From Candidatus Poribacteria bacterium (lineage in GTDB: Bacteria > Poribacteria > WGA-4E > PCPOR2b), in the NCBI GenBank assembly GCA_965218095.1, contig OZ244587.1, forward strand, positions 3,360,001 to 3,424,000: DNA of 64,000 nt. The letters run 5' to 3'. The notes beneath the pieces were generated by a model. That model saw nothing but the letters and a program-made list of their open reading frames with translations, searched no databases and was not told the origin of the DNA. Made by a program: the position numbers and the translations under genes. Positions within the stretch are counted from its first letter, which is position 1. Each line of letters begins with the position of its first letter. This document shows positions 11,617-63,677 of this stretch, one piece after another.

Positions 11617-12939
11617 ATGAACCCAATTGTCATTGTCGGTACTAGTCATCATATTGCACCGCTCGATTTTCGAGAACGGTTGTCGTTTTCTGAAGGCCAG
11701 CTTGCAGAGGCTTTCCAACTTTTAAGGGAACATCCCGATGTTCGGGAAGCCACGATTCTTTCGACTTGTAACCGTGTCGAAGTCTGTGCTGTGACCCACG
11801 GCAAAAACGGTTGTGCCGTTCTCTCCGATTTCCTTTCAGATTACCATCAAATCGAGTCGCAACAACTCAACAAGTTTACATATAGTCATCAAAATCTTGA
11901 TGCCATTCGTCATATCTTCAATGTAACTGCAAGCCTCGATTCCATGATTATCGGCGAACCACAGATTCTCGGTCAGGTGAAAGAGGCGTACGCTCAATCA
12001 CTCTCTGCTGGAACAACCGGCGATATTCTGAACCGCCTATTTGCCAAAGCGATAAGCGTCGGAAAACGAGTTCGCACCGAAACCAATATTGCCTCTGGTG
12101 CAGTATCCATCAGTTACGCAGCAGTTGAACTTGCCAAGAAAATCTTTCAAAGTCTGGAAGATAAAACGGTTGCCATTATCGGTGCCGGCGAGATGAGTGA
12201 ATTAACGGCGCAGCACCTTGTGAAGAACAACGTTTCCAAGGTCATCGTAGCGAACCGAACATATCAGCGTGCAGTCAACATCGCCAAAAGATTTAACGGG
12301 ATTCCCCTGACGTACGACACTGACCTGAGTTTCCTCGTTGAAGCAGACATCGTGATCAGCTCGACCGACGCACCGCATTATCTGATCCACCGGGATTCAC
12401 TTGCCGAAATTATGAAACAGCGGAAGCATCGCTATATGTTCCTGATCGACATCGCTGTGCCTCGTGATATCGACCCTGAAGTGAGCAAAGTAGATAATGC
12501 CTTCCTGTATAACATTGATGACCTTGAGACGGTGGTTGCCTCCAACCTCAAAGACCGACAACAGGAAGCGGAGATTGCAGCACAGATTGTCAAAGAAGAA
12601 GTTGCAAAATTTCAGTCACAGTTGCAAATCTTTCAAGTCAACCCAACGATCAAGGCACTCCATCAGCAGTTTCAGCAGGTTGCTTCAAAAGAGTTGGGAA
12701 TCTATCTTGACAAAGCGAATCTGACCCCTAAACAGCAAAAGATGGTTGAAGCTATGACGCAATCAATTATCAAAAAATTGTTGCATCAACCGACGAAAAA
12801 TTTGCGTCAGGTCGCTTTGGATCCCGATCTTACCGAGGCAGTCAATGATACCGATGGCGAGCATGTGCAGTATGTCCGCGTGCTGAAGGAATTGTTTGGT
12901 TTGGAAAAGGTGGCAAATGCGAAAGATACAGAAGATTAA
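11617..12939 (+). CDS. hemA: Glutamyl-tRNA reductase
   Basis: STCNRVE, LDSMIIGEPQILGQVK, IGAGEM and IDIAVPRDID motifs. Confidence 0.97.
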   Translation: MNPIVIVGTSHHIAPLDFRERLSFSEGQLAEAFQLLREHPDVREATILSTCNRVEVCAVTHGKNGCAVLSDFLSDYHQIESQQLNKFTYSHQNLDAIRHIFNVTASLDSMIIGEPQILGQVKEAYAQSLSAGTTGDILNRLFAKAISVGKRVRTETNIASGAVSISYAAVELAKKIFQSLEDKTVAIIGAGEMSELTAQHLVKNNVSKVIVANRTYQRAVNIAKRFNGIPLTYDTDLSFLVEADIVISSTDAPHYLIHRDSLAEIMKQRKHRYMFLIDIAVPRDIDPEVSKVDNAFLYNIDDLETVVASNLKDRQQEAEIAAQIVKEEVAKFQSQLQIFQVNPTIKALHQQFQQVASKELGIYLDKANLTPKQQKMVEAMTQSIIKKLLHQPTKNLRQVALDPDLTEAVNDTDGEHVQYVRVLKELFGLEKVANAKDTED

Positions 12940-15689: not shown

Positions 15690-15745
15690 AACGTAAAAAG
15701 ATCTTACGTTTTACGCATTACGTTTTACGCATTACGCATTACGTA
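15680..15745. repeat. Heptamer tandem repeats in inverted arrangement (GTGAAAC/GTAAAA ... TTTTACG/CATTACG)
   Basis: Direct reading. Related arrays occur near 3450, 19790, 21955, 23900, 24660, 37550, 39120 and 42225. Confidence 0.75.
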
Positions 15746-21906: not shown

Positions 21907-23211
21907 ATGCACAACAACCGGAAAGCCGGAAAACCAGAAAACAAAATTTTATTACGTTTCACGTTTTACGTTTTACGCTTTACGCTTACCCTTTTAATCT
22001 GTCTTCCTTCCGCTTTCGGACAAGGTGAGGCTGGCAAAATCGAAGGGCAAGTTATTGACAAGCAGAAGGGGCTACCGCTTACACAACAGCGAATCCTCCT
22101 ACAGATCCGCTGGGAAGGCGAAGATGTCCAGCAACGTGAGACGGTAACAGACAACAGTGGGTCTTATACCTTCGATAATCTCTCAACGGCTTTCGATGTG
22201 CACTATGTGATTTCAACCACTTACGAAGGGGAGGAATATGTCGAAAAAGACCTTGTCTTGTCAGAGTGGGTATCAGAAATCAAGGCCAATATTGAGATTG
22301 GTGGCTTTACCGATGACCCATCGCAGGTGAAGATTCGGCAGCATACGATTGTCATTTCACCGCCGCCGGCAGATCACGCCCCAGATCAAGCCGTTTCGGT
22401 GATGGAGATTATTCAGGTCGAAAATACCAGTGATCTGGCGTTTAAAACATCAATAGGGGTTCAACCGGCAGGTGTGCATTTCAACTTGCCAAATGGTTAC
22501 GAGAACCTTCAGCTTGATCAGAGCTCCAAACAAGATCTCGGGGCAACTGCAAACCGGTTAATCGCCAACCAACCGTTAGCTCCGGGAACGCATAACGTCG
22601 GATATTCTTATTTGATACACATTGTTGATTCGGATTTAGCCCTCTCCCGAAAGCTGACATTTGATACAGACCAACTCTATGTATTCATTGCGCAAGGGAT
22701 GCCATTAAAGCCACAATCACGAATCTTAGGAGCTGGCCGTCAGGAAGACATCCACGGCATGGTATACACCATTTATGCAACCGACCCTGCCAAGCCGCTA
22801 TCAACGGGGCAAACTGTAGACCTAAGCATTAAGGTTGCCTCCGTTGCTCCGGCTCCTCAAGGTGGTACGGCTGGACAACCGTCTGACCCAAAGATGATTG
22901 CGCTGATCGCAATCGCCGCGGCACTTGCAGGCGGTTTTTTGGTTGCGGCGATTTTCAAAATCCGAACCCCCACGCCGAAGCCGTCTGACGGCTCCCAAAG
23001 ATCTCAAGCGGCTCCCGATGCCAGTTGGCTCCGTAAGCTGGATGCCGCCGACATTGAGCGGACGCGGATTGCCCGGCTTGAGATGGTTACTCGTTTGGAG
23101 GAATTGTACGAGAAGCACGAAATCTCCGAGCGGGTTTATAAGCGGTTGCGGAAAGAGCAGGCAGATCGGCTCGCGGCTGTCCTTGAGCGAATGAATAGAA
23201 AAGGAGAATGA
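21907..23211 (+). CDS. ccm-associated secreted/membrane protein with carboxypeptidase-regulatory-like domain
   Basis: GKIEGQVID...TDNSGSYTFDNL beta-sandwich, late TM helix, helical tail. Confidence 0.65.
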   Translation: MHNNRKAGKPENKILLRFTFYVLRFTLTLLICLPSAFGQGEAGKIEGQVIDKQKGLPLTQQRILLQIRWEGEDVQQRETVTDNSGSYTFDNLSTAFDVHYVISTTYEGEEYVEKDLVLSEWVSEIKANIEIGGFTDDPSQVKIRQHTIVISPPPADHAPDQAVSVMEIIQVENTSDLAFKTSIGVQPAGVHFNLPNGYENLQLDQSSKQDLGATANRLIANQPLAPGTHNVGYSYLIHIVDSDLALSRKLTFDTDQLYVFIAQGMPLKPQSRILGAGRQEDIHGMVYTIYATDPAKPLSTGQTVDLSIKVASVAPAPQGGTAGQPSDPKMIALIAIAAALAGGFLVAAIFKIRTPTPKPSDGSQRSQAAPDASWLRKLDAADIERTRIARLEMVTRLEELYEKHEISERVYKRLRKEQADRLAAVLERMNRKGE

Positions 23212-23862: not shown

Positions 23863-23953
23863 CCGTAATTTCCGAATAACGTAAGATGGGAGGTTCTTCT
23901 TACGCACTACGCACTACGCACTACGCATTACGTTTTACCAATAAGAGATTCTG

Positions 23954-28286: not shown

Positions 28287-29101
28287 ATGTCTACCGTAAA
28301 CCGTTTTGCACATCCAGAGCCCCCATTTCCGGTTGGAGTGGAGTATTACCGCGCTCCCACACCAAAACCCGATTATTGGGACAAAGACTTCGCCCGGTTG
28401 CGCGCTGCCGGTTTTCGGGTTGTGCGCAGTTTTACCTATTGGAATTGGATGGAGCCGCAGCCGGGCGTCTACGAACTGGATGATTTTGATTATCTGTTCG
28501 ATTTAGCCGAAAAGCATAGGGTGTCCGTTTGGCTCGACATTGTGCTGGGGACGCATGGTGCGTGCCCGGAGTGGTTAACCCGTGAGCATCCGGACATGCG
28601 GATTGTGAATTACCATGGCCAACGAGCTGAGTCCTGTGCAGGCTCAGCTAGGCCAGTTACAGTCATCACGCTGTGTGGTTACGCGGTGTTAGCGCTACGC
28701 GGCGACACGCGGGCAATAGCGTCTTTAGCGCCACGGTAGCGATTCAAACTGCCGACAAATGCTTTACATGGTTTGGCTTCACGCTGTCAGCCGGATTTGG
28801 GGATGTCGGACAGCCGGATTTAGTGCTTGGGCTGACGGAGGAGTTGGGCGTACGGCCACGGGTATCAGTCGAAGGAGACCGTGTGGCGTCAATGGCACGG
28901 CGCTCACGCCGTGGTGGATGGCTTCTGTTTGTGTTCAACGTTGAGCGACAAAAAGCGCACGTCACGTTACGACCGAGATGGCAAATTGGCCGCGCTTATG
29001 ATCTGTTGGCTCAATGCGACGTACCGATAAAAGACAATACATTTCAGCTTGTCATCGAGCCGTGGGAGGTCGCGGTCATCCATTGTATGGAGGGCGCATG
29101 A
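28287..29101 (+). pseudogene. GH42-like beta-galactosidase, internally deleted
   Basis: N-terminus GVEYYR..., WNWMEPQPGVY...CPEWL joined out of frame to a C-terminus LLFVFN...DLL; far too short for an intact enzyme. Confidence 0.75.
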
Positions 29102-39045: not shown

Positions 39046-39130
39046 TTTTAAGTGGTGAATTGTCTGCTGTATTTCTCCAGTTACCGCACCGGATAGGAAA
39101 TGATGAAATGGGGAGATGACGCATCACGTT

Positions 39131-39397
39131 TCACGCATCACGTTTCACGTAAAGGTAAGTCTTTATCACCTCATTTGTCCGTGTATGCCGATCGGCCAAA
39201 AACCAGAGGCAGCAGCCGGACTCGTGATACCACCACTCCGTTTGCATGCCCATGGTGTTATTACGCAGATAGAGGTAGTCTGCTAACTCCGCATCGCTAG
39301 GAGCCGTGAGTTCTTTGGGACGCGGGTTGTATTCTCCGCCAAAACGGAACTCGCTGACGTTTCGAGACCCACAGTTGGGACAGGTTAAAAGTAGCAT
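39131..39397 (-). CDS. soxD: Sarcosine oxidase delta subunit
   Basis: CPNCGSR..SEF, EWWYH..GC and RHTRTNE motifs. Confidence 0.92.
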   Translation of the reverse strand: MLLLTCPNCGSRNVSEFRFGGEYNPRPKELTAPSDAELADYLYLRNNTMGMQTEWWYHESGCCLWFLADRHTRTNEVIKTYLYVKRDA

Positions 39398-51330: not shown

Positions 51331-52314
51331 ATGAACCCACTTCAAAACTTCCGCCTCGCACGCTACCGTGTGATTTTAACAGCGCTTTCGACGATTTTGA
51401 TGCCGCCCTACGCCGGCTCCACATACCGTGGCGGATTCGGTCACGCATTCCGCAAGATGGTTTGTACCCAGGGTCCAATCGACTGTGGAGATTGCACGCT
51501 CAAAGCGGTCTGCCCATACCCATATATCTTCGAGACCGCCCCATTCGAGGGCGCGCAGCAGCTACGAACCTACGGCGACGTGCCGCGCCCGTTTGTCATT
51601 GACCCACTCGGAACACGCGGCGAATACCGGCGGGGCGAATCATTTGCGTTTCGTCTCACCCTCATTGGTCGCGCCATCGACTATCTCCCCTATTTTCTGG
51701 TCAGCTTCCGCGAGTTAGGAGAGATTGGTATCGGCAAAAGACGCGGGCGTTTCCAGTTGACCCAAGTCATCGCGGATGAGGAAGGTTTTATCTTTCCACA
51801 ATCCTGTAAATCCTTGAATCCTGATGGGGAATCGATCTACACATCGGAGACGCAAACGGTACACAATCTCGATAACGCCCTGAGTTTCGACGACATTCAG
51901 CGGGAAGCGGAATCTTTGCCAACCGACTCATTGACCGTGCACCTACTCACCCCAACACGCATCACGCACGAGGGGGAGTTGACGGACAAACTCCCGTTCC
52001 ACATCTTCTGGCGACGGTTGATTGGACGCATCTCCGCGTTGGCGTATTTCCACTGTGGCGAATCGCTGAAACTGGATTTTAAGGGGCTCATCGCGCAGGC
52101 GGAGACGGTCGAGACGGTTCAGAGCGGGTTACGTTGGCACGATTGGACGCGCTATTCGTCGCGTCAGAATCAGAAGATGCAACTCGGCGGGTTGGTCGGG
52201 AGTGTGACGTATGCAGGGGATTTGGGGGTGTTCACCCCGTTTATGGCGTTGGGTGCGTTTCTGCATGTGGGCAAAAACGCGACCTTTGGACTTGGAAAGT
52301 ATCAAATTCGATGA
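51331..52314 (+). CDS. cas6: CRISPR-associated endoribonuclease Cas6
   Basis: GSTYRGGFG, CxxC..CPY.YIFE, PRPFVI and C-terminal G-rich loop HVGKNATFGLG. Confidence 0.92.
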   Translation: MNPLQNFRLARYRVILTALSTILMPPYAGSTYRGGFGHAFRKMVCTQGPIDCGDCTLKAVCPYPYIFETAPFEGAQQLRTYGDVPRPFVIDPLGTRGEYRRGESFAFRLTLIGRAIDYLPYFLVSFRELGEIGIGKRRGRFQLTQVIADEEGFIFPQSCKSLNPDGESIYTSETQTVHNLDNALSFDDIQREAESLPTDSLTVHLLTPTRITHEGELTDKLPFHIFWRRLIGRISALAYFHCGESLKLDFKGLIAQAETVETVQSGLRWHDWTRYSSRQNQKMQLGGLVGSVTYAGDLGVFTPFMALGAFLHVGKNATFGLGKYQIR

Positions 52315-52503: not shown

Positions 52504-53475
52504 ATGTCTACCAAGATGGAAAGAATTTACTGGATAGATCGGCAAATTCGATCGGAAAGGTATCCAAACGTCCATAAAGTCAAGGAACAGTTTGAACTCC
52601 GCAGCACTCGGATCGTCTACGAAGATAGGAAATTTATGATAAATTGCCTTCACGCGCCTATCAAATATTGCAGACGCAGAGAAGGATGGTACTATACGGA
52701 TGCCACCTATTTCCTCCCCGCGATAATGCTGACAAGGGAAGAAATCACAGCTTTTTTTCTGGGGGAAGAGTTATTCAGGCGGTATCTAGGCACCCCCTTT
52801 GAAACGCCTCTTCGGCTTGCACTTGATAAGATAAAACAACACCTACCGGAGCATGTAGGCTACGACGCGCAAAAGGAAACCTCTGCGTTTGCCTTCACAG
52901 GTGGCGGCAGAGCGATGGTCGATCCAGAATTATTGCTCGAACTCAATGACGCTATCCTTTCAAAACGCTCGATTGAGATAGAATATTATTCAGCGAGTCG
53001 CGGTCAAACAAACACGCGAACCGTTAATCCATACCACCTCCATAACATCCATGGCGATTGGTATCTGATCGCCTATTGTCACACACGGCGCGAACCGCGC
53101 GACTTCCTCACCAACCGCATCAAAGCGCGTAAACGCCTACCATCTACCTTCCAAGTTGCCTCGGATTTTTCCCTCAATGCGTACTTAGAGACCGGATTTC
53201 TCGCAGAACGGGCGACAGAGCCTGATAATATCGTCATCAAATTTGATGAGTATCAGGCACGTTGGATAAGAGAGCGTCAGTGGCACTCCAGTCAACAAAT
53301 TGAGGAGTTACCATCCGGTGGACTGATATTGCGACTGAGAGTCGGTGGATTGGGTGAAGTGAAGCGGTGGGTCATGGGCTATGGACCACATGCGGAAGTT
53401 CTCGAACCTGAAAGGCTCCGTCGTGAAATCAAGGAAGAAGTAAAAAAAATGAAAGAAATCTACCGTAAAAAGTAA
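52504..53475 (+). CDS. wHTH-WYL-WCX transcriptional regulator
   Basis: N-terminal HTH; RTVNPYHL...WYLIAYC; WHSSQ and WVMGYG..AEVLEP. Confidence 0.93.
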   Translation: MSTKMERIYWIDRQIRSERYPNVHKVKEQFELRSTRIVYEDRKFMINCLHAPIKYCRRREGWYYTDATYFLPAIMLTREEITAFFLGEELFRRYLGTPFETPLRLALDKIKQHLPEHVGYDAQKETSAFAFTGGGRAMVDPELLLELNDAILSKRSIEIEYYSASRGQTNTRTVNPYHLHNIHGDWYLIAYCHTRREPRDFLTNRIKARKRLPSTFQVASDFSLNAYLETGFLAERATEPDNIVIKFDEYQARWIRERQWHSSQQIEELPSGGLILRLRVGGLGEVKRWVMGYGPHAEVLEPERLRREIKEEVKKMKEIYRKK

Positions 53476-53801: not shown

Positions 53802-56582
53802 ATGGATTATCAAGCATTCAGAACAAGGGCTGTCAAATTCATGCTCAACCGCGATTGGAAGAAAAAAACCGCAAAGCGGAGAAATTTTGAGCAAAGCTTA
53901 TTTGACCACACAGTTATTGAAATTGACGCTCTTATTACATTGTTGCCACTGCTTCAGCACACCTTCTCACCTCCACTAACAGAGCCCGAGGAACAAGTGC
54001 TCCTAACCAGTGTTCTCGCACATGATGTTGGTAAAGAACTTGATGAGTGGCAGGAATACGTGATGGGGAGGCGTGACTTCCTCTCCGATGTAAATCGAGA
54101 GTTAGCCGAGGAAGTGGTCCCCGAGTTGGCGAGTCAATTCGAGTTCAGCGGTGTTGAGGAGATACTATCGTCGGTCCTTTTACACATGCGTTATGAAAGG
54201 ACACCAGTGAATGTAACAAGTCGCCTTTTGTTTGGTCAGCATACAAATCCACGTTGGAAAACATTGGCAGACATTGTTGATGCAGTGGATAATCTGTGCT
54301 CAGCAAAAGGTCTTTTTGCCGGATTACAATGCGTGGCAGAGAAAACCTGTATATCTAACCATCTCCACACTGTCTACCATCTCGTGCAAACACGAGGCGT
54401 CTCAACAACGCTGTTACATCGCGCCGCAATTGATGCCTTCATCGAATGTGGCTGGAGTCCGTTGTTACACTATAGCAACGGCACAATTTACGTAGCAAGC
54501 AGCGCGACCCAACCGCTAGAGCCGGGCGTTGACGAAATTCAAGACCAAATGGTGGAGCGTCTCAGAGAAGCGATGCCTGATAAAATAGCGAAATTAATCG
54601 TTGGCAATCCAACAAGTAGCATAATGCCAAAACCTAATCTATTTGACTACCGCGATTTGGAAACATGTTTATCCGTTGCCGCGAGCCGCATCACCCGCAA
54701 AAGCTTTTTCAACAGGCCTGAATCAAAGCGGGTTGAGGTCATTGGCAAATATTTGCTTCTTTTAGAATGCTTAATTGAAAATGAACCTAAATCTGCTTTC
54801 ACTGAATCTAACAAGAAATGGAAAATGAACGACCGCCCAGACATAGATGATGAAACTCTTGCATTGCAAATGTCGAGGATAGCCACAGCACAACCTGAAA
54901 TGTGTGTCTTCAAATTCTTCAAAGCAGTTTTGGCAGATGGTCTTCTCGGTAAACAGGTCACACCGGAAGCGGAAGAGATCTATGCCGATTTCGCAGAAGG
55001 TGGCGGGAAAAAGAAAGTACCGAAAGTAACCCCACAAAGCGTCGCCCGAACGGAATACGACGCCGTTTTTGGTGAAGGGGCTTACGCCGAGTTGCAGTCT
55101 ACAGCAAACTTAATGCCTGCTCGTGACATGGCGTTTACCGTTGACCGATTTTGGTCACTGGATGGCTCACAATTTGGACTTGATGTACCGACAGTTGAAA
55201 TTCTGCTTGACGACACCAAACGTGAGGAGATTCTCATTGATACCCTTGTAGATATTGCGAACAAAGTTTACACTGCAATACCCGTTGAAAACCGACCGGC
55301 ACGTGCAACGCCGGAAGATTTTGCGCGATGTTTCATGCCAGATCTGATTCATCCATCGCCCAAGCTGAATCTCGACGAACTGATTGCACAGCAGATGCAA
55401 GCATACGGGCAAACAAAAGCAAATGCTCGGAAGGAGAAAGGTTTGCATCTTTGCCCAATCTGCAATCAAACGTTTGATGGAGGCACAAAGGCGAAAGCTG
55501 ATTTCGTTGGAAACCCTGAGGGGCATACAAATCGCGGCGTTTCGCACGGCGGGGCCGGACAGATTGTCATCTGCGATGCCTGTAAGTATGAGAGGTTTCT
55601 CCAACAACTGTTGCTCGGTTCGCAGGTCGCCGATATTCTCGTACTGTTCCCGCGCATGAACATCGGTCACAGTAGTGGGGAAGCGTTACGCAAAAAGGCG
55701 ATTCAGATTTGGGACAAGGCTTCAATCCGAATGACTGGAGATAATCCGAACCCGGACCAACACATTACACTCAGCCTAACTAATCTAATCGCAAGAAATA
55801 TGAGCAAGAACAATTACGATGTCTATCGGCTGACGCACAATGAAATCGTTGAGTTGCTAACTTATGAGTCCACGGAAGATACAAAGAAAAAGCACAGAAA
55901 AATTTTGGATAAAGAACTCAAAGAATACTTCTCAACGGATGAACTAAGTGTCGAGGATCTGAATGAAGAGTGGGCAACTAATTTTCAAACGGTGGAAGAC
56001 GCGGTTCAGGCATTAACTGAAGGTAGAATTCAAGATGATGAAGCCCGCCGAATCCAAGCGAAGGCTTTTAATTTGATTCCACAATTTCACATAGCTTGCC
56101 AAACTCCGCATATGATTCTTGTTCCGACAACCAACCTTTTGGATTCCAAGAAATCTGCTTTTCAAAAGAAAGTTGGAAAAAATTGGGAATCAGACACAAA
56201 CGCAGGAATTCGGGAACTGTATTTGACGCTCATACTCGGACTTTCACTCGACTGCTCGGTTGCTGTTGTGAAAGCAGGTGAGGTTATTACATTCGAGGAT
56301 AGCGAAGGTGTTGCGAAAGTTCCGTCCGCACCTGCCCTTCGCGATCTGGTTGGTGCGGATTGGGTCTCAATAGAGGCAGCAGAGAAATGGCTTGACGCTA
56401 TCGGTGCGGCAGCACTGCTTGCCAATTCAACGGAATATCCCGAACGTTACAACCTCTACCAAATTCTCAAAAGTCCAACGTTGGGGCATGTACTTCGCCG
56501 AATTGAGCAGAAAAGCGACAACGGCCAAGCGTACATGTACCATTTCCATTTACTTGAACAAATGAAGGAGGTTCTCAGATGA
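53802..56582 (+). CDS. cas10d: Type I-D large subunit Cas10d with N-terminal HD nuclease
   Basis: QSLFDH...LAHDVGKE...H...D HD domain; CPIC...CDAC Zn finger; precedes cas7d and cas5d. Confidence 0.82.
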   Translation: MDYQAFRTRAVKFMLNRDWKKKTAKRRNFEQSLFDHTVIEIDALITLLPLLQHTFSPPLTEPEEQVLLTSVLAHDVGKELDEWQEYVMGRRDFLSDVNRELAEEVVPELASQFEFSGVEEILSSVLLHMRYERTPVNVTSRLLFGQHTNPRWKTLADIVDAVDNLCSAKGLFAGLQCVAEKTCISNHLHTVYHLVQTRGVSTTLLHRAAIDAFIECGWSPLLHYSNGTIYVASSATQPLEPGVDEIQDQMVERLREAMPDKIAKLIVGNPTSSIMPKPNLFDYRDLETCLSVAASRITRKSFFNRPESKRVEVIGKYLLLLECLIENEPKSAFTESNKKWKMNDRPDIDDETLALQMSRIATAQPEMCVFKFFKAVLADGLLGKQVTPEAEEIYADFAEGGGKKKVPKVTPQSVARTEYDAVFGEGAYAELQSTANLMPARDMAFTVDRFWSLDGSQFGLDVPTVEILLDDTKREEILIDTLVDIANKVYTAIPVENRPARATPEDFARCFMPDLIHPSPKLNLDELIAQQMQAYGQTKANARKEKGLHLCPICNQTFDGGTKAKADFVGNPEGHTNRGVSHGGAGQIVICDACKYERFLQQLLLGSQVADILVLFPRMNIGHSSGEALRKKAIQIWDKASIRMTGDNPNPDQHITLSLTNLIARNMSKNNYDVYRLTHNEIVELLTYESTEDTKKKHRKILDKELKEYFSTDELSVEDLNEEWATNFQTVEDAVQALTEGRIQDDEARRIQAKAFNLIPQFHIACQTPHMILVPTTNLLDSKKSAFQKKVGKNWESDTNAGIRELYLTLILGLSLDCSVAVVKAGEVITFEDSEGVAKVPSAPALRDLVGADWVSIEAAEKWLDAIGAAALLANSTEYPERYNLYQILKSPTLGHVLRRIEQKSDNGQAYMYHFHLLEQMKEVLR

Positions 56583-57217
56583 GACAGTTAATCGTAACCA
56601 AGGGGGAGCGGTTTGATATCGAAACCGTTCCCCCCAAAATTGAGCGCATTGCCGATGCCTTTGACCGGTATCTTGATGAGTATAACCCCAAAACAAGGCG
56701 AACTATGCACGGCGTTATGGGACCTGTGCAAAGGATTCTTGACGGAGCGCGTGTCCGAAAAGAGGACGCCAAAACATTGGTGGGAAGGGCGGTACGCGCT
56801 CATGAAATGAACGAGAATAACCGCGGGTATTTATCGCCATCCGCGCTTGAGGCTCTTGAGACGGGGACGCAGGATTTATTGGTATTGTGTAACGAAGTGC
56901 CTATCACAACCGTCTCCAAGGTTACTGAGCGCGTCCGTTACACCGTCTACTACATGCGAAGAAAAAAGGATATTGAGTGGTTGGAGCAGACACGCAAGAC
57001 GTTTATCGAGTTTCTGCGAAAACGTTACGCCGATGAAACTACGCTCACTACAGCGTGGGGAGAGAAATCATTGAAATTCGATGACGTTCGTTTTCCCTCT
57101 CGGAAAAATCAGGCGTTTAAGCGGGCAAACGACGTAAAGAAGGGAGATATTACCAGTTTCTGGGAATCTACCGATACAGAACCCATCATCGAAGAAGAGG
57201 AGGACGACAATGAGTAG
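56579..57217 (+). CDS. Separately encoded small subunit (Cas11d-like) with C-terminal extension
   Basis: Own RBS AAGGAGG, ATGA overlap with cas10d, helical sequence, located between cas10d and cas7d. Confidence 0.65.
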   Translation: MRQLIVTKGERFDIETVPPKIERIADAFDRYLDEYNPKTRRTMHGVMGPVQRILDGARVRKEDAKTLVGRAVRAHEMNENNRGYLSPSALEALETGTQDLLVLCNEVPITTVSKVTERVRYTVYYMRRKKDIEWLEQTRKTFIEFLRKRYADETTLTTAWGEKSLKFDDVRFPSRKNQAFKRANDVKKGDITSFWESTDTEPIIEEEEDDNE

Positions 57218-58145
57218 CTTAGACCTTTTGAAACCCTTCACCATAGACAAACCGCAACCGCTGATCGGTGCGAAGACAGTTCAAATCCTACTGATGCGCG
57301 AAATACTGGATTACACGGTTCTACGCACAGAAGAAACACGCGAACTCAACACAGTCGCTACGCCCCTCTCACTTAACAATGGTGACAATACCATCATGCG
57401 AGTTGCATTTCTGGCAACGAAGCAGAAAGCGGCTGAATCACGACAGCTAGAGCAACTCCTGCGAACAGGAACGTCTGAAGCAGATTTGTCAGTAACAGAA
57501 TGCTATCTGAAAGACAAGCTCTGCCTCGAATGTCCTCGCTGTACCTTATTTGGCGCGACAAACACAGAATCTGGACGTGAAAATCGAGCCAACATCAAGC
57601 ACCGCATCGAGTATTCGACAGCATTTTCCTTGCTCCCATTTGAGGACATTGAATCGTCAACGACGTTCAACGCAATTAACGACCTCAACCAAACGACCGG
57701 ACAAGCATTAGGTAGCCGCTACGCTGTCGTACCTGCGACCGTATTTCCAAGCATCGTCAGCTTGCGGAGCGCGACGCTCACCGAGGTAATTTTGACCATC
57801 AAAACGTTGTTGGCAAGCAAGAGCTACGGTGCAGAATCCCGAATCGGCGGAGATGTGCGTAACTCTGTTTTCGGTATCATCGGTGGTTGGGAGGAAGTCA
57901 TCACGCCCCTTGAACTCACACTTGAACTCTATGACCAACGCGACAACTTGGTCGGCGATACCTTCAAAACGATTGCCAAGAAGTATAAACCGTTGGCAGG
58001 CAATCCTGACCACGTGACCATTTTCTCGCCTGATGAGGTGGATGCAACCGTCGGAGCCGCTGCGAACACACCGCTCGATAAATCGTTATTGACGACAGCT
58101 TATAACGATGCGAAAACCTACGTCAAAGCCCAGCAGAAAAAATGA
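57210..58145 (+). CDS. cas7: Type I-D Cas7 (Csc2)
   Basis: LMRE..DY..LRTE, KQKAAE.R, CLECPRCTLFG, RIEYSTAFS and YGAESR motifs. Confidence 0.88.
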   Translation: MSSLDLLKPFTIDKPQPLIGAKTVQILLMREILDYTVLRTEETRELNTVATPLSLNNGDNTIMRVAFLATKQKAAESRQLEQLLRTGTSEADLSVTECYLKDKLCLECPRCTLFGATNTESGRENRANIKHRIEYSTAFSLLPFEDIESSTTFNAINDLNQTTGQALGSRYAVVPATVFPSIVSLRSATLTEVILTIKTLLASKSYGAESRIGGDVRNSVFGIIGGWEEVITPLELTLELYDQRDNLVGDTFKTIAKKYKPLAGNPDHVTIFSPDEVDATVGAAANTPLDKSLLTTAYNDAKTYVKAQQKK

Positions 58146-58151
58146 GCGTTC

Positions 58152-58187
58152 AAGAAACCGAGTTTTTTCGGAAAAACTCGGTTTCTT
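58152..58187. repeat. REP-like palindrome between cas7 and cas5
   Basis: AAGAAACCGAGTTTTTTCGGAAAAACTCGGTTTCTT. Confidence 0.85.
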
Positions 58188-58216
58188 CATACACATCAGC
58201 CAAGCGAGGTGACAAC

Positions 58217-58969
58217 ATGGCAAACGCTATTCGGCTTTATGAACATGGCGTGCGCGTATTTGCAGGACGACTGTATAACCACGATTACCTCTGGTTCTCA
58301 TCCAACGAAATCAGCAAAGTCTCAACAACCCAACCCATCCTGCACAACTACGCACTCTGTTATGCAATTTCGCAACGCTCCTACGGTGTCTATCTCGGTA
58401 CAACACCAAAATATGTTGAAGATCCGGATGGCGAATTCAATGCGATGCCGCTCTACGCAACGCCCGCCCACGCTGACTCCGAGCACGTATCGCGCACGAC
58501 TATCACCTTCAATGCCGTTGATTCACGCACATTGACAACAGGTGATAGCAAATCAATGAATACACCGAATTTGGGAAAGCGAGTCTACATCAATCCGGCG
58601 TGGGAATCAACGGAGGTAGAACGTCCAGAAAAAGGCTATCAATTTTACGTTTTCACATTCGACAACTATCGCCCACCAGGGGTAACACGGCTCGGTAAGA
58701 AAGGTGCTTCAATGCGCATTCGGTGGGATGAGGTACACCAACCTGTCGCAATCCACCGTGAAGGTAAACAAAGCCCAACACACCCAATTAACCCTTTGGA
58801 TGTCAACGGACACCTCGTCAGCTATGATCCGGTGATGATTCCCCCACATCTGTTATTTCGGACAGCAACCCTCGCCGCAGATTGGTGGGTGTTCTTCAGT
58901 CCCGGCAGAGCGCGGCATACCATACACGTCCCCAAACGTGTTTTGAACCGAATCGGAGGTGTATCATGA
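58217..58969 (+). CDS. cas5: Type I-D Cas5 (Csc1)
   Basis: HDYLWFSS.E, LHNYALCYA, YATPA, RLGKK and PINPLD motifs; RBS GAGGTG. Confidence 0.88.
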   Translation: MANAIRLYEHGVRVFAGRLYNHDYLWFSSNEISKVSTTQPILHNYALCYAISQRSYGVYLGTTPKYVEDPDGEFNAMPLYATPAHADSEHVSRTTITFNAVDSRTLTTGDSKSMNTPNLGKRVYINPAWESTEVERPEKGYQFYVFTFDNYRPPGVTRLGKKGASMRIRWDEVHQPVAIHREGKQSPTHPINPLDVNGHLVSYDPVMIPPHLLFRTATLAADWWVFFSPGRARHTIHVPKRVLNRIGGVS

Positions 58970-60993
58970 GAATACAAGGCTATTCTTACAAACAGGTTGT
59001 TGTCGAAGATGTGAAAACCCGCCTTTATCCACATCAAGCTGCCATGTACAACGAGTGGCCCAACCACACCGGATTTCTACTCGTGACAAAAACGGGAAGT
59101 GGCAAAACACGGGCGACAGCGTTACCCGTACTGAAAAATCACGAATCTGCTGTTTTCGCCTACCCGACAAACGCGCTGATTCAAGACCAATCGCGGGCGA
59201 TTCAGCAATTGATGGACGATGAATATATCGCCTACCGAGAATTGACACCGCAGAATGCAACCGACAAGTTTGGTAAAGAAGAATATCAACTTGTCCAAAT
59301 TAACGCGCAGACGCTGGTAGATTTTGCAAAGGCGTGGGGAATGGGTGAAAAGCAAAAAGGGGCTGCACTTATAAGGCTAATTCAACAGGACAAGCAAAAA
59401 ATTGTATTGATTAACCCCGACATTCTTTATCTTCTGTACTCGTTGCGCTACCGTGGCAGCCAAGAGGCTTTATCATATTTGCAAGCATACAAGACAATTG
59501 TATTTGACGAGTTTCATCTCTACAACGGCGTTGAATTAGCCCACGCGCTTTTCCTTATCTTTTTGGCACAACGTATGGGGGCGTTTCAACGAGTTGTGTT
59601 GCTCTCTGCCACTCCGAATGAAGATGTCAAAACCTATCTTGATCGACTGCTCAACCCGCTTGTCATTGATGCGGATGTAAAAGTTCCGCAGCCCGTTTGT
59701 GGCAAGCGAGCGGTCGCATATGATGTAGAGCTCAATGCTTTGCCTTTGCCCGTTACTAAGGATGTCGTCGAAACGGCACAATCGAAGATCCTTGAACTTC
59801 AGAGCGAATTATACCGACTCCAAACAGAAAACTGGGAAGCGAACAAAGCGGGAGATTATGTGCCTTGTGTTGTTATCCTCAATTCGGTCGTCAATGCCAT
59901 CGCACTGGAGGATACCCTTGTTGAAGCGGGGATATCCCGCACAGAAATCGCACCGATTCGCGGGCTTTCAGCGCGGAGTAGTCGAGACGTGAGAGGCAAA
60001 ACGCTTGTCATCGGCACAGCGGCAATCGAAGTCGGAATTGATTTCAAAACCGATTATCTGATTTTCGAGGCGGGCAATCAAGCGTCGTTCATGCAGCGAT
60101 TTGGACGGCTTGGGAGGCATAGTGCCGGACAGGCATTCCTACTCGCTGACCCGCGTGAATATCAAGCGGTCAAATCTCTTGGGGATGACATCTCCCGCGA
60201 TGATCTAGAGCAGGGCATCAAAACTATCTATCCCGGACAGGATGCGAAAGAGTGGTTTGTTGATACGCAGTGTGGTGCGTTTACGGTGCTCGCCCAAGCT
60301 GAGAACTTCCGCAGTCGAATTATCGACGATTGGCCTGCTGATGAATCAATGAAAACTGAACTTGAGGCGTGGCTAGACGCCGCTTTGACAGACTATGCAA
60401 CACATATGAATCTATCTCAGATGAAACGTGCTCGATTGAAACTTCGACGCAAGCCAACGTGGTTTGAGCATTACAAAGCGTTGGACTCATTTCGCACATC
60501 GTTACCGAGTCAGGAGGTTTGGGATGTTCGGGAAAAAGAGAACGAGCGCGATTGGTCTTACGATGCCGACGTCAAGATGTTGCTCACTCGTGCCGAGCGG
60601 TTGTGGTATAATGAAAGACATGACCGGCTCTACGTCAAAGGCTACGGAAAGTATCGCCAAGTCTGGTTTGCCAAAACCTTCGACGATGAACGTGAAGATG
60701 ACTGTTGTGGCATACTTCGCACAACTGCCGATTATTCAAGGGAAGATATGCAGTTCATGCAGGAAGGTCATTTGACATCAGTTTCGCATGTGATGGCAAA
60801 ACAGAAATACAAAGAGCGTGTTACCGGCCATGTATTTGTTCTCGCACCCATAGATTTAATCCCAAAATTGGACTGGCGACTGGCGTGGTTTAGATGCGGA
60901 TCGCGTGGGAAATACATCATTGCATTTGATGGAGACGCCCTTCTACTGAAAGAAATCTATGATCGGGTACTGAAGGAAAGAAACAGAAAATGA
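58966..60993 (+). CDS. cas3: Type I-D Cas3' helicase (no HD domain)
   Basis: TGSGKT, YPTNAL, DEFH, SAT, AIEVGIDF and QRFGRLGRH motifs. Confidence 0.92.
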   Translation: MRIQGYSYKQVVVEDVKTRLYPHQAAMYNEWPNHTGFLLVTKTGSGKTRATALPVLKNHESAVFAYPTNALIQDQSRAIQQLMDDEYIAYRELTPQNATDKFGKEEYQLVQINAQTLVDFAKAWGMGEKQKGAALIRLIQQDKQKIVLINPDILYLLYSLRYRGSQEALSYLQAYKTIVFDEFHLYNGVELAHALFLIFLAQRMGAFQRVVLLSATPNEDVKTYLDRLLNPLVIDADVKVPQPVCGKRAVAYDVELNALPLPVTKDVVETAQSKILELQSELYRLQTENWEANKAGDYVPCVVILNSVVNAIALEDTLVEAGISRTEIAPIRGLSARSSRDVRGKTLVIGTAAIEVGIDFKTDYLIFEAGNQASFMQRFGRLGRHSAGQAFLLADPREYQAVKSLGDDISRDDLEQGIKTIYPGQDAKEWFVDTQCGAFTVLAQAENFRSRIIDDWPADESMKTELEAWLDAALTDYATHMNLSQMKRARLKLRRKPTWFEHYKALDSFRTSLPSQEVWDVREKENERDWSYDADVKMLLTRAERLWYNERHDRLYVKGYGKYRQVWFAKTFDDEREDDCCGILRTTADYSREDMQFMQEGHLTSVSHVMAKQKYKERVTGHVFVLAPIDLIPKLDWRLAWFRCGSRGKYIIAFDGDALLLKEIYDRVLKERNRK

Positions 60994-61086: not shown

Positions 61087-62175
61087 ATGCAATCACTCAT
61101 CGTTGATGATTTTGGCGCATACCTCGGCAAACGCTCCGAGCGCGTCAGCGTCCGATACCGAGACAAAGAACGAGAAAAAGAAGAACACGCCCTCATGGAC
61201 CTCGACCACATCGTCATCGCCTCGCGGGGTGTCAGTATGTCCTCAGACCTCATCGAAGCGTGTACCGAGCGCGGCATCGAAATCTCGTTTCTCAGTTTCA
61301 ACGGCAAACCGTATGCGAAACTCAACAGCCCGTCACTGACAGCGACCGTAATTTCAAGACGCGAACAACTCGCCGCATATAACGATGAACGCGGCGTCGA
61401 GATTACCAAACGGTTCGCCACAGGCAAGTTACGGAATCAGATTAACCTCGTCCGCTATTTCGGCAAATACCGCAAGAAACGTGCGCCGAAGAAGTACGCG
61501 GAGCTAGTCGAGCGGCTCACAAAAATTGAGGTGATTATTGATGAACTCCAGTGCGTGGGGATGGGTGCAACCGATGCGCCGTCAATTGATGGTGCACGCG
61601 GCACGTTACTCAACCTCGAAGGACGCGCCGGCGCTCTCTATTGGGAATGCGTCCAACGGCTGCTGCCCGCCGGACGTTTCACAACCCGAAACCATCAAGG
61701 CGCGGTTGATGACGTGAACGCGCTGCTCAACTACGGCTACGGGATACTCTACTCACAGGTCTGGAGCGCACTCACGTTAGCTGGACTCGAACCATTTGCG
61801 GGGTTCCTACACGTTGACCGCCCCGGCAAACCATCGTTGGTGTTGGATTTTATCGAGGAGTTCCGTCAGCCGATCGTTGACCGGGTTGTGTTTGCAATGA
61901 TCAACAAGAGATTCAAGGTCGAGTGGGAAGCGCCGGATAGCGACGCCGCCAAAGCCGCGCGCCAGTCCGCAACGACCGAAATTCCGACACAGCGCCGTTT
62001 AAGCAGAGACACCCGACGCGCATTTGCCGACCGGCTACTGGCACGCCTTCAGGAGACCGAGCGATTCGAGCGAAAGGAACAGAAACTCTGCAACATTATC
62101 CAACTCCAAGCCCGCCATCTGGCGATGTTCCTGCGCCGTGAACGGGATTATCAGTCGTTGGTTGCCCGCTGGTAA
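61087..62175 (+). CDS. cas1: CRISPR-associated integrase Cas1
   Basis: EGRAGALYW, NALLNYGYGIL, GFLH and LVLDFIEEFR motifs. Confidence 0.95.
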   Translation: MQSLIVDDFGAYLGKRSERVSVRYRDKEREKEEHALMDLDHIVIASRGVSMSSDLIEACTERGIEISFLSFNGKPYAKLNSPSLTATVISRREQLAAYNDERGVEITKRFATGKLRNQINLVRYFGKYRKKRAPKKYAELVERLTKIEVIIDELQCVGMGATDAPSIDGARGTLLNLEGRAGALYWECVQRLLPAGRFTTRNHQGAVDDVNALLNYGYGILYSQVWSALTLAGLEPFAGFLHVDRPGKPSLVLDFIEEFRQPIVDRVVFAMINKRFKVEWEAPDSDAAKAARQSATTEIPTQRRLSRDTRRAFADRLLARLQETERFERKEQKLCNIIQLQARHLAMFLRRERDYQSLVARW

Positions 62176-62208
62176 GAAACCGAGTTTTTTCCTCAAAACT
62201 CGGTTTCT
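62175..62208. repeat. REP palindrome, left flank of RAYT
   Basis: AGAAACCGAGTTTT / AAAACTCGGTTTCT; overlaps the cas1 stop codon. Confidence 0.85.
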
Positions 62209-62221
62209 GGAGGCGTCACAG

Positions 62222-62788
62222 ATGCGAAACATCCAATTTAGAGCCGGATATTATTACCATTTATACAACCGTGGTGTGGATCGTCAACCCATCTTCTTCG
62301 ATGAGGAAAACTGGGGATACTTTATAAAACGTTTGCGTCATTACTGCATACCTGATCTGATTGAAATTGTCGCTTATTGTCTCATGCCGAATCATTACCA
62401 CATTCTCGCTTATCTGAAAGATGACAACCTGAGCACGAAAATCATGCAACCATTCACCGTGTCCTACACCAAAGCTGTGAATCGGCAACAAGACCGCGTG
62501 GGCCCAGTTTTCCAAGGCACCTTTAAGGCAAAGTTAGTAGACAAAAACGAGTATCTTCTACATCTTTCACGCTATCTTCACCTGAATCCAGTATTGGCGG
62601 GGATAGTTGGTAATCCTGCAAGCTGGACATTTTCTAGCTATCAGGACTACGTTGGCTTGCGTAACGGAACTTTATCCAAACCTGATATCGTACTGTCCCA
62701 GTTTCCTTCGCGCCAGGCTTATGCTAAATTTGTCCGTGCGTATTCTGAGACCGACAGGGAGTTAATTGAGCATTTGATGTTAGATTAG
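62222..62788 (+). mobile_element. REP-associated tyrosine transposase (RAYT, Y1 HUH)
   Basis: YYHLYNRG...IF, AYCLMPNHYH (HUH), G.VFQG.F, YLHLNPV and W.FSSY motifs; flanked by REPs. Confidence 0.88.
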
Positions 62789-62815
62789 AAAACAAAGAAA
62801 CCGGATAGGAGGCAA

Positions 62816-62849
62816 AGAAACCGAGTTTTCAAGAAAAAACTCGGTTTCT
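62816..62849. repeat. REP palindrome, right flank of RAYT
   Basis: AGAAACCGAGTTTTCAAGAAAAAACTCGGTTTCT, 7 nt before the cas2 ATG. Confidence 0.85.
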
Positions 62850-62856
62850 ACATACT

Positions 62857-63108
62857 ATGCACACCTACGTCATCTACGACATTGTCAAAGACCGCATCCG
62901 CAAAAAAATCGCGGATGTCTGCCTCGATTACGGCTTAAAACGCATCCAATACAGCGCGTTCCTAGGCGACATCAATACCACACGACAGCGGGCGTTAGAG
63001 GAGAAACTCACGGAACAACTCGGCAGAGCGGAAGGGAAGATCGAAATCCTCAGCGTGTGCGCGAAGGACTTCGACAAGCGAACCGTTATTGAGGAGGCTG
63101 GAGAATGA
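62857..63108 (+). CDS. cas2: CRISPR-associated Cas2
   Basis: VIYDI..DRIR and GLKRIQYSAF motifs. Confidence 0.95.
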   Translation: MHTYVIYDIVKDRIRKKIADVCLDYGLKRIQYSAFLGDINTTRQRALEEKLTEQLGRAEGKIEILSVCAKDFDKRTVIEEAGE

Positions 63109-63677
63109 ACATACGAGTCAGTGACATCAAGCAGTACTTCTACTGCCCAAGGGTGGTCTACCACACCTACTTGACACCCGTCCACCGGCCCGTCACGCAT
63201 CCGATGCAACTGGGCGCCGTCGAACACGAGGTGCTCAGTGTCTTGGAGCGGCGTCGAACCCTCTCCCGCTATGGGCTTGACGCTGGAAGCCGTAAATTCC
63301 ATCTCTCACTGCACGCCGAGTCTCTCGGATTGACAGGCGTACTCGACCTGCTGATTGAGACGGAAGATGGCGCGTTTCCGGTCGAGTTTAAGTCCACGAC
63401 TCAACGGCTGAACCTGAACGCGAAATACCAATTGACGGCGTATGCGATGCTGGTGGAGGCGTGTCTCGGTCATTCAGTTTCTCAAGGGTTTATCTATCGG
63501 ATTCCGACACAGCGCATCACAGCGGTTCCGATTTCAGAGACACTTCGTCGGAAGACCCACCACGCCATCGAGCAGATACGGGGTATGCTTTCAGACGAGC
63601 GGCTGCCATCGCCGACGCCACAGCGAGGAAAATGTGTCGAGTGCGAATTTCGTCGATTCTGTGGCGATGTGTTGTGA
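63105..63677 (+). CDS. cas4: CRISPR-associated Cas4
   Basis: QYFYCPR, G.LD, PVEFK, QLTAY and CVECEFRRFC motifs. Confidence 0.95.
   Translation: MNIRVSDIKQYFYCPRVVYHTYLTPVHRPVTHPMQLGAVEHEVLSVLERRRTLSRYGLDAGSRKFHLSLHAESLGLTGVLDLLIETEDGAFPVEFKSTTQRLNLNAKYQLTAYAMLVEACLGHSVSQGFIYRIPTQRITAVPISETLRRKTHHAIEQIRGMLSDERLPSPTPQRGKCVECEFRRFCGDVL

Follow-up and report, generated by a model that had tools for sequence, protein, structure and literature searches.

What serves as the small subunit of a type I-D CRISPR complex when the large subunit, Cas10d, carries no fused Cas11 domain, and what has such a subunit acquired? The question is raised by a locus in a 64,000-nucleotide stretch (the window) from a Candidatus Poribacteria bacterium (GenBank assembly GCA_965218095.1, contig OZ244587.1, positions 3,360,001 to 3,424,000 of the forward strand), where cas10d is followed by a separate gene for a protein of 212 residues (P0002). 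We identify this protein with high confidence as Cas11d bearing a non-catalytic arm that resembles part of glycoside hydrolase family 42 (GH42). The fuller statement, in which the arm was captured from a GH42-type enzyme, would make contacts along the belly of the Cascade complex and has a look-alike in Cas10d, we regard as just about probable. The parts concerned lie at the following positions of the window.

53802-56582, + strand: cas10d, 926 residues (P0001), large subunit without a fused Cas11 domain
56565-56571, + strand: Shine-Dalgarno-like AAGGAGG for cas11d, within the end of cas10d (read from the sequence)
56579-57217, + strand: cas11d, separate gene, 212 residues (P0002)
56579-56995, + strand: Cas11d core, residues 1-139, a helical bundle
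56978-57172, + strand: GH42-like three-helix arm, residues 134-198

Cas11d is encoded by a separate gene

P0002 received no name from Pfam or NCBIfam. A word-indexed search with this protein returned 135 proteins, which among the matches listed (120) were 205-218 residues long with 57-87% identity, and an exhaustive search returned 91 cluster representatives. Homology to the C-terminal part of Cas10d came from P0200, a fused Cas10d of 1119 residues that aligns with the Cas10d of this clade: residues 5-197 of P0002 align to its residues 911-1104 (E = 3.5e-6). An AlphaFold model of P0002, built from a 25-sequence alignment (predicted local distance difference test score, pLDDT, 85.9; predicted template modelling score 0.79), displayed the helical-bundle fold that Cas11d shares with the C-terminal domain of Cas10d. 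P0001, for its part, ends where the Synechocystis Cas11 domain begins.

The AAGGAGG motif is located 7 nucleotides ahead of the cas11d ATG (56579), which overlaps the cas10d stop codon as ATGA. P0002 is a separate open reading frame (ORF) with its own AAGGAGG rather than the result of internal in-frame translation within cas10d, and cas11d is thus a separate, translationally coupled gene and not an internal cas10d product. In the available text of PMC10212523, PMC9123187 and the McBride et al. preprint, Cas11d is described as an internal translation product of cas10d, and PMC10212523 terms this internal translation "widely conserved" across I-D lineages. Judged from its sequence, P0002 would work like Cas11d while being encoded differently.

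P0200 was kept out of the family alignment, as was P0203. In the latter (312 residues), a 59-residue unit is repeated identically in tandem at least five times, every copy having a weak match to the arm (E = 5.6e-6 overall); the protein is probably translated from repeated DNA and was set aside.

A GH42-like arm at the end of Cas11d

In the AlphaFold model the last helix of the bundle (residues 109-149) continues into the arm and is followed by helices at residues 153-160, 178-181 and 185-198. The 146-residue Cas11d of Synechocystis aligns to model residues 13-139 only, leaving residues 134-198 as extra. A preliminary description of this DNA, made from the sequence alone, had proposed a non-Cas helical module related to a GH42 subdomain in the small subunit and, as the same module, in Cas10d. 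The two stretches that it quoted lie where it had placed them, at residues 142-195 of P0002 (57002-57163) and residues 702-734 of Cas10d (55905-56003), and the proposal held for the small subunit, both in the relation to GH42 and in the position of the module outside the canonical Cas11d fold.

The strongest evidence came from comparison of profiles. An 83-sequence profile of the module matched a 60-sequence GH42 profile (every second of 120 GH42 proteins) with an hhalign probability of 97.3% (E = 2.3e-11; 56 columns, 23% identity), and the match spans both halves of the arm, corresponding to residues 177-237 of the GH42 protein P0335, with about 10 pattern positions at matching spacing. When a 6-sequence module profile was searched against the PDB (E <= 10), all 16 matches were glycosidases carrying the same motif (best E = 0.0034), consisting of 11 beta-galactosidases, four agarases and one beta/alpha-amylase; the agarases and the amylase we take to represent families GH50 and GH14. 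The excursion concerned belongs to the GH42 catalytic domain (PF02449) and covers residues 156-228 in 3TTS, 155-193 in 1KWG and 171-238 in 4UCF; the arm matches its pattern and its predicted fold over 56-65 residues. Direct comparison with PF02449 gave a match on the last 85 residues of P0002 (E = 0.058; profile positions 146-197 of 376) that scored 13.2 bits against a cut-off of 21, and matches for two of six module-only sequences (best E = 1.6e-4), with no match for P0002 as a whole.

Structure-based comparison gave the same assignment. All seven rows of a fold search that covered residues 133-203 were glycosidases, with a root-mean-square deviation (rmsd) of 2.0-4.4 A, the best superpositions reaching 2.0-2.2 A over 61-64 residues, and a language-model Atlas look-up of residues 134-212 returned GH42 clusters for 27 of 30 hits (top score 0.95). 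Within the host genome (14,422 stop-to-stop ORFs of at least 100 residues), a hidden Markov model (HMM) of the module ranked P0002 first with 79.6 bits and a GH42-like ORF (L023) second with 19.4 bits; a second GH42 gene ranked eighth. L023 (G000:C1:5110154-5112811; 886 residues) is a divergent GH42 relative that has a Pfam match to GH42M, the trimerisation domain, and in the catalytic domain matches nothing but the arm motif.

The full-length family profile had no PDB match at E <= 10, and the glycosidases were found with the module-only profile alone. A Foldseek comparison with the PDB failed to produce a match at E <= 0.001 for the Cas11d model or the Cas10d model. One point against the assignment is that the folds of the arm are AlphaFold models, and because the network may have learned the GH42 motif, the agreement in fold is not fully independent of the sequence.

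The likeness does not amount to membership of GH42. P0002 stays below the PF02449 gathering cut-off over the catalytic domain, and the model is all-helical and devoid of strands, with neither a TIM barrel nor the acid/base and nucleophile glutamates; the zinc-binding cysteine cluster of GH42 is also missing, and the GH42-aligned region begins after the acid/base glutamate of P0335 (Glu-163). The arm is a shared GH42 subdomain, a mini-domain mounted on a helical bundle, and, lacking both barrel and catalytic residues, is no enzyme. Aromatic and aliphatic residues make up most of its invariant positions (F142, F145, L146, Y150, L156, W160 and F194, together with P173, K187 and D190), a pattern that fits a folding core and suggests that the conserved positions form the hydrophobic interior of the mini-domain. 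The arm most likely originated by capture of a piece of a GH42-type TIM-barrel glycosidase, namely of the non-catalytic excursion of helices found after the acid/base strand (strand 4). Some 60 residues of a TIM-barrel enzyme appear to have survived as an independent arm joined to a helical bundle, a clear instance of a sub-domain being re-used by an unrelated fold.

Elsewhere in the window, a 150-residue ORF (28287-28739) matches PF02449 at positions 10-95 (E = 1e-13), which amounts to no more than the N-terminal quarter of the catalytic domain and leaves out the arm region; it is probably a gene remnant.

Distribution of the arm

The arm was present in 69 of the 80 family representatives having a core. 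Eight of the 11 representatives that lack it are 145-153 residues long, two end within the core and one has 174 residues. A metagenome scan for short-form Cas11d loci, for which four of the eight short forms were used as query (the alignment of all eight being too divergent), found the arm in none of 27 loci, the best module score being 3.5 bits, and six plasmid-borne Cas10d sequences, canonical or split, were all without it. As the arm is absent from the short forms and from plasmid Cas10d, it is therefore an accretion of one clade.

Within that clade the arm occurs in both split and fused forms, the latter represented by P0200. The idea that the arm compensates for the lost covalent link between Cas10d and Cas11 was rejected for this reason, the fused P0200 also being an arm-bearer.

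A partial look-alike in Cas10d

The second site named in the preliminary description falls within a helical insertion of Cas10d that is specific to this lineage.

55869-56084, + strand: helical insertion in the palm-like domain of Cas10d, residues 690-761
55887-56000, + strand: Cas10d stretch with the first half of the GH42-type motif (a helix, then LNEEWATNF), residues 696-733

Single-sequence scores for this stretch were low. The module HMM had its best match at the same place in all 12 Cas10d sequences, with scores of -3.2 to 6.1 bits (3.3 bits for P0001), and shuffled sequences reached the score in 6 of 2000 cases for P0001 and in 1 and 48 of 2000 for two other Cas10d proteins. With hhalign, the module profile aligned best to residues 696-733 of P0001 within a 46-sequence full-length Cas10d profile (P = 6e-4, probability 29%; score 28, next match 13), and the best match between Cas10d and GH42 joined Cas10d residues 699-728 to residues 177-202 of P0335 (27 columns with 37% identity; P = 5.8e-4). 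The register was identical across the three pairwise comparisons of module, Cas10d and GH42.

Against these results stands the view that the stretch is an unrelated amphipathic helix and turn, alike by chance, so that the module would occur in Cas11d only. We give this view a substantial chance, short of calling it probable. In its favour, and against a module shared by both proteins, is a series of negative results. BLASTP did not align P0001 with P0002 at the stretches in question, about 40 ORFs of the host genome equalled the Cas10d stretch by module HMM, and PF02449 matched none of the 12 full-length Cas10d proteins (Pfam, E <= 10). A profile of the Cas10d segment (8 of the 12 locus sequences) found glycosidases in none of its 10 PDB matches, and an Atlas look-up of Cas10d residues 690-765 gave no usable match. 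A 46-sequence segment HMM ranked the GH42-like ORF 15th and P0002 246th over the host genome; it scored 11-15 bits on bona fide GH42 proteins. The likeness is also incomplete: of the two halves of the arm pattern (a helix with L[NT]xAW..., then F..V.[FY]P...K.D...F), the second has no counterpart in Cas10d, and only 27-34 columns align.

Chance has to account for two profile comparisons with P of about 6e-4 each that agree in register, and the controls speak against it. Column-shuffled Cas10d profiles reached the observed score against the module in none of 80 trials (maximum 20.5 versus 28.0) and against GH42 in none of 48 (maximum 25.4 versus 40.5), while reversed alignments scored 17.3 and 17.5 versus 28.0 and 40.5. 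The nine-residue pattern [LIVM]N..W.[TS].[FY] was found in 41 of 46 Cas10d proteins of the clade and in 41 of 60 GH42 proteins, compared to only 8 of the 14,422 host-genome ORFs, and among those eight the preceding helix context was present only in Cas10d and the GH42-like ORF. In a fold search with the Cas10d model, the entry ranked 18th of 48,161 was a GH42 chain aligned to precisely this segment.

We consider it reasonably likely that residues 696-733 are genuinely analogous in structure to the arm's first half; homology between the two is a more tentative proposition that we would not call probable. Of the shared module originally proposed, then, what remains in Cas10d is a stretch of 27-34 residues with the first half of the motif: the proposal was borne out strongly for Cas11d and only weakly and in part for Cas10d, and neither the PDB profile search nor the Atlas look-up tied the Cas10d stretch to glycosidases.

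The motif was found in all 12 loci of the arm-bearing clade and in none of 21 large ORFs adjoining an arm-less Cas11d. The loci counted belong to two clades of relatives, so the counts lack independence and show clade-specificity, not co-evolution. In addition, P0200 possesses the arm without the Cas10d motif, so the two elements are not strictly linked.

Proposed role of the arm

Along the belly (minor) filament of Cascade, small subunits are stacked head to tail. Placed where the last Cas11d helix ends, the arm would protrude from one end of each subunit and, on the simplest arrangement, would touch a neighbour, making protein-protein contacts along the filament; the partner could be the next Cas11d, Cas7d or Cas10d, which in this clade has no Cas11 domain fused to it. 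Being a part of the small subunit, the arm would be present in several copies per complex, because the stoichiometry of Cas11d is 2 in 7SBA (PMC9123187, available text). An inter-subunit contact arm on the belly filament is plausible to us while falling a little short of probable; the preliminary description had likewise suggested an interaction surface.

The GH42 enzymes themselves offer a precedent for such contacts. According to the available text of PMC10688820, Trp-200 and Phe-221 of BiBga42A are situated at the tips of long domain A helices and, in the trimer, reach the active site of the neighbouring subunit. Counted from the acid/base glutamate (Glu-160 in BiBga42A, Glu-163 in P0335), both residues fall inside the aligned region 177-237, a placement that is approximate and assumes no insertions or deletions. 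The hhalign alignment also provides a point against the precedent: a 5-residue tip loop of GH42, which includes the second tryptophan, is deleted in Cas11d. By this alignment Cas11d has probably not kept the residue through which GH42 touches its neighbour, and because the loop is deleted the contact chemistry cannot be the same as in GH42.

A further step would make the Cas11d arm and the Cas10d look-alike a matched docking pair: as Cas10d has in this clade no fused Cas11 domain from which the belly filament could be seeded, its element would dock the first free Cas11d just as each arm docks the next subunit. We find this quite improbable; if true, the links of a CRISPR filament would derive from an arm that serves oligomerisation in a sugar hydrolase.

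Beyond the arm, the C-terminus of Cas11d forms a tail that bears on the role in a different way.

57173-57214, + strand: acidic tail, residues 199-212, net charge -9, predicted disordered
57197-57212, + strand: GAGGAGG and the cas7d ATG embedded in the tail codons (dual coding; read from the sequence)

The arm might be a spacer that presents this tail. The tail would fold onto the basic Cas11d/Cas10d surface for the non-target strand and be displaced at R-loop formation, or it would recruit Cas3'. The acidic tails of single-strand DNA-binding proteins, which recruit partners, provide an analogy for the latter. Disorder and charge agree with a function of this kind: pLDDT was below 50 for residues 203-212, and the net charge of -9 on the tail faces a body of +8 (core +4, arm +4). 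Acidity is also common in the family, with a tail charge of -4 or lower in 52 of 68 members and at least six D/E among the last 15 residues in 48 of 69 arm-bearing members. In the available text of PMC10212523, positively charged residues of Cas11d and of the Cas10d C-terminus are held probably to stabilise the R-loop.

The coding sequence of the tail speaks against this account. The cas7d ATG is positioned 6 nucleotides beyond GAGGAGG, and the same arrangement was observed in all 11 related loci. Because cas7d has its ribosome-binding site and start codon within the final codons of the tail, conservation of the tail may partly reflect a constraint at the DNA level rather than protein function, leaving its composition in part a by-product, which also weakens the reading that the acidic tail by itself accounts for the extension. 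Arm-less short Cas11d proteins end in GGE- or GGG-type tails that would encode a ribosome-binding site too. A spacer for the acidic tail is in our view unlikely, and contact along the belly filament remains the role that we prefer for the arm.

Descent, convergence and the shield proposal

The likeness of the arm to GH42 could also have arisen by convergence on a common helix-turn-helix packing motif, rather than by descent from part of a glycosidase. The similarity covers a short segment of 56-65 residues at 23% identity, the single-sequence or small-profile E-values are all marginal (0.058, 0.0034 and 0.033), and the motif recurs in several glycosidase families, including agarase and beta-amylase chains, and may be a solution that is easily reached. 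Convergence must nevertheless explain a profile-profile match over both halves of the arm with the spacing of its pattern positions retained, the concentration of all 16 PDB matches and 27 of 30 Atlas matches in one enzyme group, and the close superpositions obtained in the fold search. It is decidedly unlikely given this agreement, and capture from a GH42-type enzyme is the origin that we retain.

The preliminary description had further suggested that the module, displayed along the belly, might act as a shield against anti-CRISPR (Acr) proteins; AcrID1 is known to bind Cas10d (6THH; PMC7689449), and extra surface domains could in principle block such binders, but sequence, context and homologues give no pointer to Acr pressure and the conserved positions are core hydrophobics, not variable surface, which makes a shield hardly credible.

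Comparison with known systems

The Cas11d of Synechocystis (7SBA chain J), which equals the C-terminal domain of Cas10d, has 146 residues compared to the 212 of P0002 with its GH42-like arm and acidic tail. The P0002 family has no detectable sequence similarity to it (no match at E <= 10 for the family profile against the PDB). In the Poribacteria locus, unlike in Synechocystis, cas11d is a separate gene with its own ribosome-binding site and Cas10d lacks the fused Cas11 domain.

A split cas10d/cas11d is not unique to this clade, and public annotations hold such loci. On the Halococcus dombrowskii plasmid NZ_CP095009.1 (L028 2036-4971), cas10d is split into ORFs of 833 and 145 residues, both annotated Cas10d/Csc3. 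As in the window, the small ORF overlaps the end of cas10d, and the order is cas6, cas10d, small ORF, cas7d, cas5d, cas3'. The 145-residue protein has no arm, and hhalign detected no similarity between it and the P0002 family (probability 0.9%). A similar-looking split, with a large cas10d ORF and a small ORF before cas7d, was found on a Rubrobacter plasmid (L030 2379-4839); the small ORFs of the two annotated loci encode 145-149 residues.

Full-text literature searches returned no paper on Cas11 with GH42, on Cas11 or the small subunit with an acidic tail or a glycoside hydrolase, or on type I-D in Poribacteria, and the available main text of PMC10212523, PMC9123187 and the McBride et al. preprint makes no mention of such a Cas11d extension. 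To this extent the suggestion that the module was undescribed in Cas proteins was upheld. The available text of PMC10212523 counts the line of descent of Cas11 across class 1 systems among the questions still open. In the clade described here, which occurs in genomes of Poribacteria, Chloroflexota and the Armatimonadota type, a type I-D-like system has its cas10d cut cleanly where Cas11 would begin, and its small subunit has gained what appears to be a foreign mini-domain. For reconstitution, such systems need separate expression of cas11d; the end of this gene also provides cas7d with its ribosome-binding site and start codon.

Type I-D gene set and neighbouring genes

The cas genes form one operon-like block on the + strand that runs from 51.3 kb to the end of the window. 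Besides cas10d and cas11d it comprises the following genes.

51331-52314, + strand: cas6-like gene, 327 residues (Pfam PF10040 CRISPR_Cas6, E = 2.5e-17; weak TIGR01877 match)
52504-53475, + strand: WYL-WCX regulator gene, 323 residues (Pfam WYL, E = 2.4e-21; WCX, E = 2.9e-23)
57210-58145, + strand: cas7d/csc2, 311 residues (PF18320, E = 1.6e-40; TIGR03157, 97.3 bits, cut-off 38)
58142-58969, + strand: cas5d/csc1, 275 residues (TIGR03159, 92.1 bits, cut-off 41.4)
58882-60993, + strand: cas3' helicase, longest ORF (TIGR03158, type I-D Cas3', 165.3 bits, cut-off 69.1); the true start is probably the ATG at 58966
61087-63677, + strand: adaptation genes cas1 (61087-62175), cas2 (62857-63108) and cas4 (63105-63677), all with NCBIfam matches

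Cas7d, Cas5d and Cas3' each exceeded their NCBIfam cut-offs. TIGR03174 matched Cas10d with 33.7 bits against a cut-off of 60 and only at the N-terminal HD end; the profile of the clade matched canonical Cas10d with an hhalign probability of 98.4% (E = 7.9e-15). With an HD-bearing Cas10d, Cas7d/Csc2, Cas5d/Csc1 and a separate Cas3', the locus has the gene set of type I-D. The order cas10d-cas11d-cas7d-cas5d-cas3' was found again in 11 of 12 genome loci from Poribacteria, Chloroflexota and Fimbriimonadia, the twelfth being degraded.

A CRISPR array is located directly 3' of cas4, starting about 70 nucleotides beyond the end of the window (window-equivalent position ~64073 onwards). It contains about 119 copies of a 37-nucleotide repeat with spacers of 34-39 nucleotides (L031:1073-9536 and 12040-12278). 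The repeat terminates in ...GGGGACTGAAAG, with point variants in later repeats, and this end resembles that of the Synechocystis I-D repeat given in the methods of PMC9123187 (available text).

Between cas1 and cas2, an ORF (62024-62788, + strand) resembling a REP-associated tyrosine transposase (NF047646, 68.9 bits, cut-off 80) overlaps the 3' end of cas1 in a different frame. Short tandem arrays of related 7-mers (TTACGCA, TTACGTT, TACGCAC) were also observed in the window at 15704-15744, 21952-21984, 23901-23932 and 39119-39149.

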